Below are positions 7,603 through 12,582 of a stretch of DNA of 64,000 nt, piece by piece. The notes beneath the pieces are model-generated. The model was given only the letters and a program-made list of their open reading frames with translations, made no database searches and was not told the origin of the DNA. The stretch is from Escherichia phage mogra. The stretch lies in sequence record MN850579.1, one strand, 5' to 3'. The stretch's first letter is position 1. Every line of letters starts with the position of its first letter. The position numbers and the translations under genes were made by a program.

Positions 7603-7624
7603 GGAGGACTCCGGTCCTCCTTTT
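7603..7624 (+). terminator. rho-independent terminator
   Basis: GGAGGAC-TCCG-GTCCTCC then TTTT. Confidence 0.75.
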
Positions 7625-7643
7625 GGATAATAAAGGAGTTAAC

Positions 7644-8246
7644 ATGCGAAACCAAAATAATGATATTGACTCAATGTTCGAAGAGTTCCGAGATAAGGTA
7701 AATCCACCTACGTCTTTAGTTGATTCATTACGATATGTTGCAACTGGACGTAAATGGTACTGGTCGTCTTCTTATGAGACCACCGAGAAAACGGCTAGCC
7801 ATAGCAGAAAATCTTTATTAGCCCCAGGTATTATGATTCATGATATCGGAGCTATTGCTAAACTAGTTGCAGACCATGATATTAGATTCACTGATTTCGT
7901 TGCTCCTACGTGGTCTGTTTGTTGTTTAAACACTGAATGGGAATATATCAGCGAACGCTCTGAAGATTATTATGGCTTTAGAGATAAGCTTCTGAGGTCT
8001 AATATGTTTTATATCGATACAGAAGTTCTAGTCGATAATAAAAAATATTACTTTACGTTAATCATCGATTCTGAAACTATGTATGAAGGCAAGCCTTTGC
8101 TTAAGAGAGTTGATGCTTTAAGTGCTATTGATGCGCTTTATGAAACTATGGTTGTTAGTCCTAATTTCACTAATAATTTAATCCTTGAGCAATTTATTAT
8201 GGAATGTAGAGAATATGTCAAAGCCAACCCTATACATGCCAAGTAA
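7644..8246 (+). CDS. hypothetical protein
   Basis: ATG after SD aaaggag; C-terminus carries FIMECR motif. Confidence 0.5.
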   Translation: MRNQNNDIDSMFEEFRDKVNPPTSLVDSLRYVATGRKWYWSSSYETTEKTASHSRKSLLAPGIMIHDIGAIAKLVADHDIRFTDFVAPTWSVCCLNTEWEYISERSEDYYGFRDKLLRSNMFYIDTEVLVDNKKYYFTLIIDSETMYEGKPLLKRVDALSAIDALYETMVVSPNFTNNLILEQFIMECREYVKANPIHAK

Positions 8247-8610
8247 GCCCTGGGCGTATGAATACAAGCGTAAATTAATCCCAAATGAAGTATTATTTGG
8301 CCCTATTTTAGCTTTAGCATTTTTAATCTTTATGATTATAGGAGCTGTTTTAGATTCTAGTGAAGTTATATCGTCTGATGCAGCATTTTCATTAATGTTC
8401 GTCGCACCACTTATTGTACCGTTTTTATTAATGCCTATTAATTGGGTAGGATATTGGCACCAAGGCCGTCATCACAGAGCCCGATTAAGAGAATGGAAAG
8501 TTCAGTGCGCAAAAGCCCAAGCTCAGTATGATGAAGCTGTTAAAAAGTATGAATATGAAGAAGCTATGGAATTCGTTAAGGAAATAAGATGCAAAAGCCT
8601 CAACTCTTAA
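8215..8610 (+). CDS. small membrane protein
   Basis: Hydrophobic helices; overlaps upstream gene end. Confidence 0.45.
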   Translation: MSKPTLYMPSKPWAYEYKRKLIPNEVLFGPILALAFLIFMIIGAVLDSSEVISSDAAFSLMFVAPLIVPFLLMPINWVGYWHQGRHHRARLREWKVQCAKAQAQYDEAVKKYEYEEAMEFVKEIRCKSLNS

Positions 8611-8948
8611 CCGTATGGCCTTCTCTTGGTGAGAACATTCTAATTTTTATTATGAGTATTGGCATGGGATTTGCCTTTGGATTAGTTGGATTTCTTATTG
8701 ACGGCGTTGTGTTAGGATTTATAGGGAACACTGGTGGATTCACAGACCAATGGCAGGACTTACGGTATACCCAAGCCTTTGCATCCATCGCATCATTTTG
8801 TACTGTAGTCTATTTTTACTACGATTTTATAAACCATAACAAGAAAAATAAAAAGATTTACGCTTCTCAAATGATTAGTTATAATGAACTTCTAGCTAAA
8901 CGTGAAAATGAAACAATCGAAAACTTTATTAAGGAATGTAGAAAATGA
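8589..8948 (+). CDS. small membrane protein, C-terminal NFIKECRK
   Basis: SD aagga; TM segments; shared C-terminal motif. Confidence 0.5.
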   Translation: MQKPQLLTVWPSLGENILIFIMSIGMGFAFGLVGFLIDGVVLGFIGNTGGFTDQWQDLRYTQAFASIASFCTVVYFYYDFINHNKKNKKIYASQMISYNELLAKRENETIENFIKECRK

Positions 8949-9250
8949 GTAAGATTATTGAAATTAAAGTACCAGAGTTTAATGATGCCAAATCCGCTTC
9001 AGATGCAATTTATAAACTTCTGAATCAAGCTGAACGTATCGAAGAAGAAGCAACAAAGATCGCAGACCAATATGCCGTGTCATTTTCTGTAGGTGATTAT
9101 GGTAGCGGTCGTACTTATTATCCTAAGGGTGAAATCGTATCCCAGTGGATGAAAGATGAAATTGAAAATAATGGTGGCGATGTTAAGCGTGAAGGTAATG
9201 GTTACGTTATTACTGAAGGTGCTTGGGTTTCGTCTTCTGCGTTGTGCTAA
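8945..9250 (+). CDS. hypothetical protein, tandem paralog 1 (C-terminal GAWVSSSALC)
   Basis: ATGA overlap; shared C-terminal motif with the next two ORFs. Confidence 0.55.
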   Translation: MSKIIEIKVPEFNDAKSASDAIYKLLNQAERIEEEATKIADQYAVSFSVGDYGSGRTYYPKGEIVSQWMKDEIENNGGDVKREGNGYVITEGAWVSSSALC

Positions 9251-9259
9251 GGAATCATT

Positions 9260-9532
9260 ATGTCTAAAGAACAAACCGAACTGGCTGAAGCTGTAGCAAA
9301 AATCTATGCAGCTATTGAGGCTGCCAAAGAAATTGCTGATAAACAAAACACAACATTCAACTTGTACCCAGCTTATGGTATGGGTGGAACCTATCATTCA
9401 CCCAGACATCTTAAAGCCGATCTTGAACGTTGTACAAAAAACGGCTATGCTGAATGGGCTGACGTTTACCAATACGACTACAACCTGAGCCTCGAAACCG
9501 GTGGTTGGGTTGCATCTTCTCACACTTGCTAA
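9260..9532 (+). CDS. hypothetical protein, tandem paralog 2 (C-terminal GGWVASSHTC)
   Basis: SD aagga; shared C-terminal motif. Confidence 0.55.
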   Translation: MSKEQTELAEAVAKIYAAIEAAKEIADKQNTTFNLYPAYGMGGTYHSPRHLKADLERCTKNGYAEWADVYQYDYNLSLETGGWVASSHTC

Positions 9533-9541
9533 GGAAACAAT

Positions 9542-9739
9542 ATGTCTCGTGAATTAGATTGTGCTGTACGTACGGCAGTAGCTGCTCTGGAAAACCTGTT
9601 CCAAATTGCAACAGAAGAACGCGAAGAAGTTACATTATGGATTGAAGATAACGCAGGTCTGAATCTCCAGGACGCGATCTCATTATCCCACAATAGTATC
9701 ACTGTTCAAGGCTGGGTATCATCTAGTTATTCTTGCTAA
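9542..9739 (+). CDS. hypothetical protein, tandem paralog 3 (C-terminal QGWVSSSYSC)
   Basis: SD aagga; shared C-terminal motif. Confidence 0.55.
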   Translation: MSRELDCAVRTAVAALENLFQIATEEREEVTLWIEDNAGLNLQDAISLSHNSITVQGWVSSSYSC

Positions 9740-9743
9740 AACA

Positions 9744-9788
9744 GTTTACAACAAGATAGGGCTATGTTATAGTAGTCCTATCAAAAAC
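9744..9788 (+). promoter_or_regulatory. early promoter / stem-loop cassette (TAGGGCTA..TAGTCCTA)
   Basis: GTTTAC 9744. Confidence 0.5.
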
Positions 9789-9802
9789 AAATGGAGTCCA
9801 CA

Positions 9803-10042
9803 ATGATTTATTACGAAAGTATCGGAACCAAAGTGGTTGGTAAAACCATTACTCGTGAAAAGTTTGCAAAGATATTCGATATGCGTTATAAAAAATCTGA
9901 ACACAAAGGCATCCGATTCGAAGATGCGCACTGTACAATTTGCCCTTATAATGAAGACATAAACGGTACAATCGTTCCATTGGTAGAGGCTTCACACGAT
10001 GACCTCTGGGACGAATATAATATCGCATGTCGTGAAATTTAA
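9803..10042 (+). CDS. hypothetical protein
   Basis: ATG 9803 after SD tggag; promoter cassette upstream. Confidence 0.5.
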   Translation: MIYYESIGTKVVGKTITREKFAKIFDMRYKKSEHKGIRFEDAHCTICPYNEDINGTIVPLVEASHDDLWDEYNIACREI

Positions 10043-10070: not shown

Positions 10071-11027
10071 ATGATGTTAGTTATTGGTTCTCGTGCACTT
10101 CACTATCACGGTCTTATTGATTCTAGCGCTATCAAAAATAGCGATTGGGACTTTATTGCGGACCAAGGTTCTTGGAATGCATTCAAAAATCAAATGATGG
10201 GTGTATATGTTCACCAAGATAACCCTGATGTCCAAGTTTTCAAATGCTTCCATAATGGACGCGAAACTCATTTTGAAGCATATATTGTTCCGGCAATCAC
10301 TAATGTCCGTGAATTAGTCGGTGAACTCACTCCTGAAGATTTCACGTCTTCTTATGACCTTTTAAAATACGCCAAGAAAAATTTGACTAAAGACCGTTTG
10401 AACGGGTTTTACTGGGCAACTCCTGAGATATGTCTTGCAATTAAGATGTCTCATCGTTTCAAGAAAAATAATCCATTCTTTTTAAAGACTATGAACCATA
10501 TTCAGTATCTTCGTGGTAAAGGTGTTACACTGAACGATGAACTTACTGAAATTATGCTGAAACGCCAGAAAGAAACCTTGAACTATGCTCACCCGGTTCT
10601 TGACACTTCTAAAAGTGCGTTCTTTAAAGATGACATCTATACATATGACCATGATACTATTCATGAAGCCATTGCACTAACAGACCGTCCGGCTTATACA
10701 TTTTATATGAAAGACGGTTCTGAAGTCATGACCTCACGCGAGAAGTTCGAATCGTTACCAGAAATGGTCAAATTGGCCGGTGTATATGAAGAATCATGTG
10801 TACTAGCATTAGAACGTTCTCAGATTCCTAATGACTTTAAAATTAACCCTGAAGCCAGTTTCATGATGGCATTAGAAAAAGTCTGCACAAGCATCACCTC
10901 CGGTTGGTTCCGTGAATACGCCTGGGAAAACTACAGCAAAGTAGTAAGTATGTACCAAAGCTTAGGACATAACGATTACGTCAAACGTTTCAAACAAAAT
11001 TTCCATATGGTAAAACCTTTCAAATAA
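10071..11027 (+). CDS. hypothetical protein; possible nucleotidyltransferase-fold N-terminus (GS...DWDF)
   Basis: SD gaggaaaa; motif resemblance only. Confidence 0.5.
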   Translation: MMLVIGSRALHYHGLIDSSAIKNSDWDFIADQGSWNAFKNQMMGVYVHQDNPDVQVFKCFHNGRETHFEAYIVPAITNVRELVGELTPEDFTSSYDLLKYAKKNLTKDRLNGFYWATPEICLAIKMSHRFKKNNPFFLKTMNHIQYLRGKGVTLNDELTEIMLKRQKETLNYAHPVLDTSKSAFFKDDIYTYDHDTIHEAIALTDRPAYTFYMKDGSEVMTSREKFESLPEMVKLAGVYEESCVLALERSQIPNDFKINPEASFMMALEKVCTSITSGWFREYAWENYSKVVSMYQSLGHNDYVKRFKQNFHMVKPFK

Positions 11028-11039
11028 TTTCGCAAAACT

Positions 11040-11084
11040 GTTTACACAATTATAGGACTATGTTATAGTAGTCCTACCAAAACA
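11040..11084 (+). promoter_or_regulatory. early promoter / stem-loop cassette (TAGGACTA..TAGTCCTA)
   Basis: GTTTAC 11040. Confidence 0.5.
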
Positions 11085-11097
11085 TGAGGAGAATATT

Positions 11098-11403
11098 ATG
11101 AAATTAGGCGAAACCAACCGAATTGGTCTTTTAACAATATTTGCATCACTTTTTTACGCAACTCTTTCTGTTGCAGTATTACAAAAGGCTTACAGTATGG
11201 ATGGTGTGCCTGGTTGTATATTCTTATCACCGTTTTTATTATTCGTCGGAGCTTTGTTATTATATGCCACGACTAGTTTCGACCATAATGTCTGGGTCAA
11301 TTATAAACGTAAATTGACCGAAGAAGAACACGCAGAAGCTCGTAAAAAAGCTATTGAATCTACCAATCTAGAAAATTTCATTAAAGAATGTCGAGGAAAA
11401 TAA
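11098..11403 (+). CDS. small membrane protein, C-terminal NFIKECRGK
   Basis: Two TM helices; shared C-terminal motif. Confidence 0.55.
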   Translation: MKLGETNRIGLLTIFASLFYATLSVAVLQKAYSMDGVPGCIFLSPFLLFVGALLLYATTSFDHNVWVNYKRKLTEEEHAEARKKAIESTNLENFIKECRGK

Positions 11404-11404
11404 T

Positions 11405-12091
11405 ATGAATAGTTCTAAAGTGTTTAATAGTCAAGCTCGTGCAATAGGTGGTTTTGCTCATGCGATTAAAAACGACCAGATTAAAAACGAGCCTATGTTC
11501 TTTAACTGCGATTTGAATTTTGCTTTTGATAATGGCGGCCCAATTACTCGTAGCTTTATCCAAAATCTCCCTGACGATTGGAAAGACTCGGATGTAGTAT
11601 TTGATTCACGAGTCCACATGCTGATGCCTGGTTGGTACCCTGCTATTCCTGGATATCACCATGACGATGTTCCACGCCCTGATATTCCAGTTGGTCAACA
11701 TTTTATTACTGCAGGACAACCTGATTATGACAATCCTCGCTATTTGTCTGAACATATTCTTGGTCTTGTTAACGCTGATGTGTGTCCTACTCATTTTGCA
11801 ACAGGAACTGCAGAGTTCAGTCAGATTCCTGATGGCGAACTTATCTATCGCCAGTGGCACAAAGAAGTCCTCGAAAAAATCGAAAAAGGCGAACTAGAGA
11901 AATGGGAAGCTCCAGACCGTACTCTTCTTCAGTTTGATTGGCAAACATGGCACACTGGTTCTCGTGCAATTAGTAATGGATGGCGTTGGTTCGGACGTGT
12001 ATCTCGTAATACAGACCGAGTTAAAAAGATTACCAATGAAATTCGTGTCAATGCCCAAGTTTATCTGGAATTCCCTATGGAAGGTTGGTAA
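11405..12091 (+). CDS. hypothetical protein (HHDD motif)
   Basis: 228 aa; function not assignable by eye. Confidence 0.5.
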   Translation: MNSSKVFNSQARAIGGFAHAIKNDQIKNEPMFFNCDLNFAFDNGGPITRSFIQNLPDDWKDSDVVFDSRVHMLMPGWYPAIPGYHHDDVPRPDIPVGQHFITAGQPDYDNPRYLSEHILGLVNADVCPTHFATGTAEFSQIPDGELIYRQWHKEVLEKIEKGELEKWEAPDRTLLQFDWQTWHTGSRAISNGWRWFGRVSRNTDRVKKITNEIRVNAQVYLEFPMEGW

Positions 12092-12582
12092 TGATTAACA
12101 AAACATATTGGTCTAATATAGACGATGGCAACGAAGGTATTTCGTATTATTCGGTAGATTGGACAGGATGTCCATCCTACTTAGTGAAACATATTTGCCA
12201 AGAATTTAAAATCTACCAGCCAGCAGGTATTATTGTGAACAGATACATTAATGGATATCAACCTATCGATGAAGTAATACGAACAACTCAAGCTGAGCTT
12301 GAAAAGTTTTTCAATAAGTGCCAATGGATAACAGGATGGATTATATTTGTACCGTCTATATGGTTTTTTAGTACTAAAGTAAGTGCCTTTGCTGTACTAG
12401 ATATTATCGCTATCTTATTAGCATCTACTATCGTAAGTATTATTGGTGGTATTATTGGTGGAGGTATTGTAGGCATCATTATTAATCTTATTAAAAGTAG
12501 TTTACAAGAACATAAAGACAAGATAAAAGCCAAGAATAATGAAGTTGAACGTTTTATTACCGAATGCAGGAATTTGAGATGA
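12085..12582 (+). CDS. membrane protein with glycine-zipper TM segment, C-terminal RFITECR
   Basis: GGIIGGGIVGII segment; shared C-terminal motif. Confidence 0.5.
   Translation: MVMINKTYWSNIDDGNEGISYYSVDWTGCPSYLVKHICQEFKIYQPAGIIVNRYINGYQPIDEVIRTTQAELEKFFNKCQWITGWIIFVPSIWFFSTKVSAFAVLDIIAILLASTIVSIIGGIIGGGIVGIIINLIKSSLQEHKDKIKAKNNEVERFITECRNLR

Follow-up and report, generated by a model that had tools for sequence, protein, structure and literature searches.

The closest described counterparts of the locus analysed here appear to be two-gene systems that pair a nucleotidyltransferase with a small partner protein. The locus lies in Escherichia phage mogra (sequence record MN850579.1), of which a stretch of 64,000 nucleotides was analysed (hereafter the window), and comprises a tandem array of three small open reading frames (ORF1, ORF2 and ORF3), whose products share a C-terminal tail, followed by a gene for a predicted nucleotidyltransferase of 318 amino acids (aa; hereafter the enzyme). 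In the HepT/MntA system (HEPN-MNT, type VII toxin-antitoxin), MntA is a minimal nucleotidyltransferase with a Pol-beta fold and a G-S...D-x-D motif, which moves nucleoside monophosphates (NMPs) onto a hydroxyl side chain of its partner (PMC7641770, PMC11586414). The phage locus resembles this arrangement in being a two-part module of a predicted nucleotidyltransferase and small proteins. However, HepT is an HEPN RNase (R-x4-6-H) that is modified on Tyr, whereas the tail-bearing phage proteins conserve W, S, S and C, and exhibited neither a Pfam match to HEPN nor an HEPN-like fold. With regard to MenAT/AbiE, the enzyme differs in lacking any Pfam match besides DUF7277 and DUF7275, as no other family, DUF1814/AbiEii included, recurred among 121 homologues at E ≤ 5. 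Moreover, the tail proteins are unrelated to MenA1, MenA3 and AbiEi, and multi-copy arrays with a conserved C-terminal tail are a feature of the phage module, not of MenAT. By analogy, the module would be most like these nucleotidyltransferase-plus-partner systems, yet it does not appear to be a member of either, since it has no HEPN partner, no DUF1814 membership, unrelated small proteins and multi-copy arrays, and is confined to phages.

GlnD with PII, and GlnE with glutamine synthetase, are further cases in which a Pol-beta-type domain modifies a protein hydroxyl, thereby switching the activity of the modified protein. These enzymes differ in that they serve cellular nitrogen regulation and act on Tyr of unrelated targets; homology with the phage enzyme is limited to the fold class, and a removal (HD) domain was not detected in the 318-aa protein (Pfam, 121 homologues). 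Small, often acidic proteins whose function resides in an invariant extreme C-terminus are represented by LysW, ThiS/MoaD and the precursors of aminovinyl-cysteine (AviCys) peptides, the last of which need a terminal Cys with a Ser or Thr a few residues upstream. However, the partners of these proteins (ATP-grasp, E1-like, and flavoprotein decarboxylase plus dehydratase enzymes) are absent from the phage module, and the tails of LysW and ThiS/MoaD end in Glu or Gly-Gly. The small phage proteins showed no similarity to carrier or tag proteins in either sequence or fold.

Tandem small genes with a common C-terminal tail

ORF1, ORF2 and ORF3 are real genes. Their products belong to a large family of small acidic proteins that is confined to phages and defined by the invariant C-terminal sequence G-G-W-[VI]-[SA]-S-S-x-x-Cys-COOH; family genes occur as tandem arrays of one to five, immediately ahead of a conserved nucleotidyltransferase gene and in the same direction. 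The array of the window contains the following features:

8945..9250 (+): ORF1, 101 aa, A-type member, equivalent to RB69ORF139c, tail EGAWVSSSALC
9224..9247 (+): ORF1 tail WVSSSALC, last eight codons ahead of TAA
9260..9532 (+): ORF2, 90 aa, B-type member, equivalent to RB69ORF137c, tail GGWVASSHTC
9506..9529 (+): ORF2 tail WVASSHTC, codons ahead of TAA
9542..9739 (+): ORF3, 65 aa, C-type member, equivalent to RB69ORF136c, tail QGWVSSSYSC
9713..9736 (+): ORF3 tail WVSSSYSC, codons ahead of TAA

Three consecutive plus-strand ORFs of 101, 90 and 65 aa ending in a common motif had been reported in an earlier examination of this DNA (hereafter the sequence-only reading), and their exact coordinates and ends were confirmed, with TAA following directly after the tail in all three. 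A six-frame scan for W-[VIL]-[SA]-S-S-x-x-C-stop returned three sites in 64 kb, namely the ends of ORF1, ORF2 and ORF3, and no other, compared with a chance expectation of 0.0007 sites based on six-frame residue frequencies. ORF1 combines a long amphipathic helix with the loop DYGSGRTYYP and the tail, ORF2 a helix with the loop AYGMGGTYHSP and the tail, and ORF3 an N-terminal helix (MSRELDCAVRTA...) with the tail.

The tail codons of ORF1/ORF2/ORF3 differ (GTT/GTT/GTA, TCG/GCA/TCA and TCT/TCT/AGT). A looser pattern collected 43 tails from 12 other phage loci and the window, 41 of these tails being located within family genes; the Cys codon was TGT in 22 and TGC in 21 cases, and the first Ser of the pair was encoded by TCT, TCC, TCA, AGC or AGT, i.e. 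by both TCN and AGY codons. Since codons vary between copies, the tail is conserved as protein and not as a shared DNA junction. An origin of the tail by chance or as a nucleotide-level artefact (a gene-junction sequence or a recent tandem duplication), without a selected function, could be suspected from the junction that ORF1 and ORF2 have in common (TGC TAA GGAA.CA.TATG, in which the stop overlaps the next ribosome-binding site). However, ORF3 ends without a downstream gene junction, and the low chance expectation, the differing synonymous codons and the retention of the tail, both in orthologues from other phage genera and in the 218 divergent cluster representatives described below, refute such an origin, the likelihood of which we regard as vanishingly small. 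The outcome that the sequence-only reading had itself named as fatal to its proposal, namely a shared nucleotide junction without conservation in orthologues, is therefore not what was observed.

The three N-terminal parts had also been described as unrelated, which is correct for ORF3 but wrong for ORF1 and ORF2. Both of the latter match phrog_899 (E 1e-22 and 2.4e-18, respectively), whereas phrog_4882 is the sole PHROG match of ORF3 (E 7.7e-37). BLASTP similarity between the ORF pairs was weak (E about 1e-3). Profile comparison of the A-type with the B/F-type by hhalign gave a probability of 97.6% (E 3e-12), which remained at 93.6% when the tail was trimmed; the trimmed ORF3-type exhibited no significant similarity to the other sub-types in the same comparison. 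Similarly, a profile of 57 metagenomic representatives plus ORF2, from which ORF1 had been left out, matched ORF1 with an E of 7e-16 and ORF3 only weakly (0.057). According to these profiles, ORF1 and ORF2 are true paralogues over their whole length, and ORF3 is linked to them through the tail alone. In both ORF1 and ORF2, an amphipathic N-terminal helix ending in ..IAD.. is accompanied by a strand, the loop Y-G-x-G-x-T-Y-x-P and the tail, the helix/loop stretch (..IAD.. followed by Y-G-x-G-x-T-Y) being IADQYAVSFSVGDYGSGRTYYP in ORF1 and IADKQNTTFNLYPAYGMGGTYH in ORF2. ORF3 possesses the helix and lacks the YG loop, so that the combination of helix and loop is present in two of the three ORFs. 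The ORF1 orthologue RB69ORF139c (protein P0002) is 71 aa long and ends in ...SQWYEK; its first 68 residues are identical to those of ORF1 and the tail has been lost, apparently by a frameshift, which suggests that ORF1 is dispensable in the laboratory strain of RB69.

Relatives of ORF1 and ORF3 were found by tblastn in 394 and 251 phage records, respectively. Fourteen loci were fetched, representing Mosig-, Dhaka-, Karam-, Winkler-, Teguna-, Mosuguk-, Kanagawa- and Marfavirus, three genera of Aeromonas phages and two genera of Stephanstirmvirinae. Each was shown to carry two to five tandem small genes (52-121 aa), all ending in W-x(1-2)-S-S-x(0-3)-C. The sub-types number at least six; one of these, the D-type, is absent from the window and combines an internal DW[LQ]xSxCYGE with W-x-x-S-S-C at the terminus. 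When 33 sequences were aligned, W, one S and C were the only invariant positions. A profile of the ORF1 and ORF2 types, run exhaustively with HMMER against 1.84 billion representatives, identified 218 cluster representatives (<50% identity) at E ≤ 1e-3. G-G-W-x-[SA]-S-S-x-x-C-COOH terminates 130 of the 146 representatives that were inspected, and a further eight have a single extra residue. Within the 130 tailed representatives, W occupies position -8 in 129, S position -5 in 129 and S position -4 in 127, G-G precedes W, and position -6 is S, A or P. Members are acidic (median isoelectric point (pI) of 4.5), and the last residue is the sole cysteine in 74 of 138. Extra internal copies of W-x(1-2)-S-[SDNG] are present in 52 of the 138 members, compared with five expected from shuffles (maximum 11), examples being ...RWESSSEGWESSSEGWVSSSSQC and ...DWDSSGCEWDNSGCYQEDYGWNASSAHC. 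No further family members were detected among the ORFs of the window by the family hidden Markov models (HMMs).

An AlphaFold2 model of ORF1, based on a 34-sequence alignment, reached a mean predicted local distance difference test (pLDDT) value of 86.3 and shows a small sheet against which a long helix (residues 15-43) is packed. When ORF1, ORF2 and ORF3 were compared with Pfam, NCBIfam and PADLOC, only sub-threshold noise was returned (Peptidase_S78_2, whose 16.8 bits fall short of the cut-off of 24, MscS_C and PDC-S49). Regarding known anti-phage defence and anti-defence families, PADLOC yielded one chance-level score (E 0.01) and NCBIfam none for the small proteins, and neither a Pfam name nor a solved structure was found for the family. 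PHROG 899, PHROG 4882, DUF7277 and DUF7275, which hold ORF1 and ORF2, ORF3, and the 318-aa protein, are all labelled as being of unknown function, and these entries record neither the C-terminal tail, nor the unity of the sub-families through it, nor the linkage of the small proteins to the enzyme. Full-text literature searches for family names, RB69 gene names, PHROG identifiers, motif strings and the linkage identified no relevant paper.

The neighbouring predicted nucleotidyltransferase and its linkage to the array

The partner gene of the array is located as follows:

10071..11027 (+): 318-aa protein, equivalent to RB69ORF134c, phrog_2141, with Pfam DUF7277 (residues 2-101) and DUF7275 (residues 120-305)

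This gene begins 331 nt past the ORF3 stop and is co-directional with the array; a gene of 300-330 aa follows the array in almost every fetched locus. The protein has 2715 relatives in a 90%-clustered database, and its family occurs in 733 phage records. Across 121 homologues, D25, D27 and E69 are invariant and G6, S7 and R8 are conserved in ≥ 90%, while invariant residues of the C-terminal lobe include K125, H128, R129, D193-H-D195 and the block KVCTSITSG. In the predicted structure (pLDDT 91.2, predicted template modelling score 0.85), the G-S...D-x-D motif is located on strand 1, helix 1 and strand 2, and E69 within a later strand (64-73). The protein thus carries the Pol-beta motif (h-G-[GS] ... 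D-h-[DE]-h plus a third carboxylate), with a spacer of 17 residues that is longer than the usual 9-13 or the GSX10DXD of MntA (PMC7641770), and its model exhibits the characteristic alpha/beta fold. It is predicted to be a Pol-beta-fold nucleotidyltransferase of the MenT/AbiEii/ANT structural class that appears to be catalytically intact. Its closest structural relatives are MenT1/3/4, ANT and LnuA, and the likeness to MenT/AbiEii is structural only, at 7-13% identity; in MenT1 the catalytic residues are K137 and D152 (PMC10435456). Sequence searches of the PDB with the enzyme, either as a single sequence or as a nine-sequence profile, returned nothing, and no membership of a named nucleotidyltransferase family was found at the sequence level.

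To assess the linkage, 80 enzyme loci were retrieved from IMG/VR with an enzyme profile (40-98% identity, including jumbo-phage contigs of ~360 kb). One to five tail-bearing ORFs were present on the same strand within 2.5 kb upstream of the enzyme gene in 75 of these, no tail ORF was observed downstream of it, and none of 2365 opposite-strand ORFs carried the tail. The five exceptions represent one Karamvirus-like locus (L036) and one lineage of four related contigs with close homologues of the enzyme (L055, L056, L057 and L083). In L057 the enzyme gene is split into pieces of 55 and 209 aa. The reverse search, with a small-protein profile, found the enzyme downstream on the same strand in 40 of 43 loci, and two of the three exceptions end <0.9 kb past the small gene. 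The order of the pair is kept in different neighbourhoods, being located by nrdD in Aeromonas phages, by a replicative helicase gene in Acinetobacter phage PhT2, and also in Otagovirus and Stephanstirmvirinae. Array and enzyme gene together make up a module of two parts, which is passed as a unit from one phage group to another, unrelated one. Among 185,579 bacterial and archaeal species genomes, the enzyme was present in five contigs of metagenome-assembled genomes only, indicating that the module is essentially phage-only; a bacterial home for it was considered and rejected, the five contigs being most likely binned phage.

Possible roles of the tail and the enzyme

The sequence-only reading had proposed that the tail is a shared recognition tag or modification site. 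The idea of a shared element is strengthened by the tail residues W, S and C being invariant in hundreds of phage proteins from six or more sub-families, by the reiteration of W-x-S-S inside many members well above chance, and by the candidate MenT/ANT-like nucleotidyltransferase that is encoded almost always just downstream. In the reading that we favour, the tail would be a common handle by which different small proteins engage a single enzyme, most likely as its protein substrates. An NMP would be moved onto the hydroxyl of one of the two invariant serines, with Trp and the terminal Cys-carboxylate as recognition determinants, and the differing N-terminal bodies (A, B and C types) would direct the individual tagged proteins to separate targets or roles in early infection. 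As a whole statement, i.e. that the tail engages the enzyme and that an NMP is transferred to an invariant Ser, this substrate model is given a probability of about 40%. It is favoured because the tail is the only feature common to otherwise unrelated sub-types, because the W-x-S-S unit is reiterated in the manner of an acceptor or docking motif, and because several divergent paralogues per phage are better suited to many substrates of one writer than to many inhibitors. Nucleotidylylation of hydroxyls by Pol-beta-fold enzymes is, furthermore, known both for partner proteins (MntA on HepT; PMC7641770) and for small molecules (ANT, Lnu).

Several observations weigh against the substrate model. 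In the ORF1 model W94-S96 form the last strand and S97-L100 a short helical turn, both at good confidence (C101 being less confident), so that the modelled tail looks structured rather than a free arm, and the idea of a floppy tag is to that extent weakened. Of the closest structural relatives, MenT1/3/4 act on tRNA 3' ends (PMC10435456), and ANT and LnuA act on small molecules, not on proteins. No tail-bearing gene was present within 4 kb upstream of the enzyme in the five exceptional loci, and none upstream of distant, shorter enzyme homologues in Streptomyces, Gordonia and Vibrio phages, which indicates that the enzyme family is older or wider than the small-protein family. In the window, a promoter-like site and an unrelated 83-aa gene part the array from the enzyme gene. 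Finally, serine nucleotidylylation in itself leaves the absolute need for a terminal Cys unexplained. A broader version of the proposal is that of a phage writer plus portable tag, in which the nucleotidyltransferase would covalently couple at least one nucleotide to either the Ser-Ser pair or the last Cys of a short W-SS-C tag grafted on unrelated small bodies, sometimes in reiterated form, and the conjugates would act early, for example as decoys or inhibitors of host defences that are directed at nucleic acids or based on nucleotide signalling; we consider it conceivable, if doubtful.

Alternatively, the small acidic proteins could be antitoxin-like inhibitors or regulators of a MenT-like tRNA-modifying enzyme (acting against the host or in tRNA repair), with the tail or the long helix plugging or clamping the enzyme. 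MenA1, which acts on MenT1, sets a precedent for such a short protein inhibitor, although it does not use a conserved C-terminal tail. One inhibitor would suffice, yet up to five divergent paralogues with only the tail in common are kept, and the reiteration of W-x-S-S inside the proteins is more in keeping with several sites for acceptance or binding than with one plug. Moreover, the enzyme is not basic (pI of 6.6; median of 5.9), and tight translational coupling is absent, given the 331-nt gap with another gene and a promoter-like site. These considerations make an antitoxin role rather unlikely. We regard as similarly unlikely an intrinsic structural or ligand-binding function, in which the tail would supply the last beta-strand, with Trp in the core and Ser/Cys as a cap, perhaps holding a metal or a disulphide between subunits or, with the YGMGG loop, lining a pocket for a small molecule. 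In that case the proteins would act apart from the enzyme, e.g. as sponges or inhibitors of host proteins, and synteny would reflect co-regulation or shared ancestry. This possibility is consistent with the W-V-S segment being modelled as a strand at high confidence and with the Gly-rich YG(M)GGTYYP and Ser-rich segments, which are typical of ligand-binding loops; small acidic early phage proteins are, in addition, often inhibitors or sponges. However, the ORF3-type and the D-type keep the tail without a YGMGG loop or detectable homology to ORF1 and ORF2 (marginal for the D-type), and a fold requirement alone is therefore hard to accept as the explanation. Furthermore, Cys is the very last residue in about 90% of members, without a second Cys in the 74 proteins noted above, and the linkage to the enzyme survives transfer among unrelated phage families and neighbourhoods.

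Considerably less probable than either is a function of the small proteins as carriers or as precursors akin to ribosomally synthesized and post-translationally modified peptides, based on thiol chemistry at the terminal Cys. This could take the form of an AviCys-type cross-link between a dehydrated Ser at -3 and the decarboxylated C-terminal Cys, or of a thiol arm loaded with an acyl, persulphide or nucleotide group; activation of the Ser or of the cargo would fall to the enzyme. The tandem precursor-like genes next to an enzyme gene, as well as the invariant Cys in the most conserved block of the enzyme (KVCTSITSG), would fit such chemistry. S-x-x-C with a C-terminal Cys, as seen in the tail, is the layout of AviCys-forming peptides such as epidermin, and LysW and ThiS are small acidic proteins that use a conserved C-terminus as a carrier arm. 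Nonetheless, an HFCD/LanD decarboxylase and a dehydratase are not among the neighbours, which are membrane proteins and unknowns, and the conserved module is also devoid of radical-SAM, ATP-grasp and E1-like genes. D-type members end in S-S-C, without a spacer, and the proteins are predicted to be folded (52-175 aa) rather than leader-core peptides. To our knowledge, no Ser elimination driven by a nucleotidyltransferase has been described.

The pattern is strong, unusual and widespread among relatives of model phages, and it is from this pattern that we infer the biochemistry. Hundreds of sequenced phages carry the module, their hosts being Escherichia, Klebsiella, Enterobacter, Serratia, Yersinia, Aeromonas, Pseudomonas and Acinetobacter, and it also occurs in jumbo-phage contigs; T4-like phages are among the best-studied viruses, yet the module has no name, literature or assigned function. 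An invariant last-residue Cys after Trp-Ser-Ser is very unusual among cytoplasmic bacterial or phage proteins, and makes for a sharply defined hypothesis that can be tested by mass spectrometry. If a MenT-like enzyme indeed writes on, or is controlled by, the tail, the module would represent a new class of nucleotidyltransferase and partner, the first to be confined to viruses, and probably a new mechanism of host takeover or counter-defence, and the upkeep of up to five divergent paralogues would be explained. A writer plus tag would, more specifically, constitute viral post-translational tagging without a described counterpart. Should the tail instead be structural or ligand-binding, the proteins would still make up a new family of small protein folds with a wide distribution among phages.

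Genomic setting and other neighbouring genes

Over the 1.6 kb that was queried, the window is 98.5-99.5% identical to many genomes of Mosigvirus (RB69-like, Straboviridae), e.g. mobillu and APCEc01. The array is located in the variable early/middle region from the tRNA cluster to the lysozyme gene e, where relatives annotate every gene as 'hypothetical'. Its surroundings contain the following features:

7623-8246 (+): upstream 207-aa ORF, phrog_2607, e.5-like
8185-8610 (+): predicted membrane-protein gene
8589-8948 (+): predicted membrane-protein gene
8857..8885 (+): promoter-like site TTTACG-17-TATAAT, 60 nt before ORF1, consensus match only
9745..9773 (+): T4 early-promoter-like site TTTACA-17-TATAGT with TG, directly past the ORF3 stop, consensus match only
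9791..10042 (+): 83-aa ORF between array and enzyme gene, phrog_3723, equivalent to RB69ORF135c, three Cys
11098-11403 (+): predicted membrane-protein gene
12085-12582 (+): predicted membrane-protein gene

The promoter-like site ahead of ORF1 corresponds to an annotated T4-type middle promoter in phage SA35RD, while that past ORF3 precedes the 83-aa ORF and the enzyme gene. TTTACA also follows the last small gene in three of the other loci (L004, L010 and L014). A site identical to that past the ORF3 stop (TTTACA-17-TATAGT with upstream TG) is located at 11041-11069 (+), directly past the stop of the nucleotidyltransferase gene. The ATG of ORF1 overlaps the stop of the upstream membrane-protein gene (ATGA), and the TAA stops of ORF1 and ORF2 overlap the AAGGA ribosome-binding site of the next gene.

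At the position between array and enzyme, the 83-aa ORF is confined to Mosigvirus and Dhakavirus; it is absent, for example, from PM2 and the Aeromonas phages, and falls outside the conserved core. It was considered as a degenerate D-type member (FEDAHCTICPYNED vs FEDWLNSSCYGEE) and rejected, as hhalign returned an E of 0.095 and the family HMMs no score. A local likeness to the D-type (IRFEDAHCTICPYNED vs IRFEDWLNSSCYGEE) is without statistical support. The upstream 207-aa ORF contains an internal ...GRKWYWSSSYETTEK... that resembles the tail unit (KWYWSSSYE); it was likewise rejected as a relative (family HMM E of 7.6), the likeness being probably coincidental.

The four predicted membrane-protein genes, which are RB69 e.2/e.3/e.4-like and flank the module, appear to make up another paralogous family, marked by a conserved Cys-Arg signature at the C-terminus. 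Their products have common C-termini (...EFVKEIRCKSLNS, ...ENFIKECRK, ...ENFIKECRGK and ...ERFITECRNLR), and three similar genes are located upstream of the array in PM2.

Genes related to tRNA were encountered near several loci. In T-even-like phages, the module occupies the interval from the tRNA cluster to gene e. The distant enzyme homologue of Gordonia phage Engineer (L146, 3309-4100) adjoins a tRNA gene cluster, that of Streptomyces phage Beuffert (L145, 3378-4133) has an RNA ligase gene ~1 kb away, and in Yersinia phage TG1 a tRNA-Gly gene is located directly ahead of the first small gene. Such proximity to tRNA and RNA ligase genes hints that the putative enzyme may act on tRNA, as do its MenT structural relatives.

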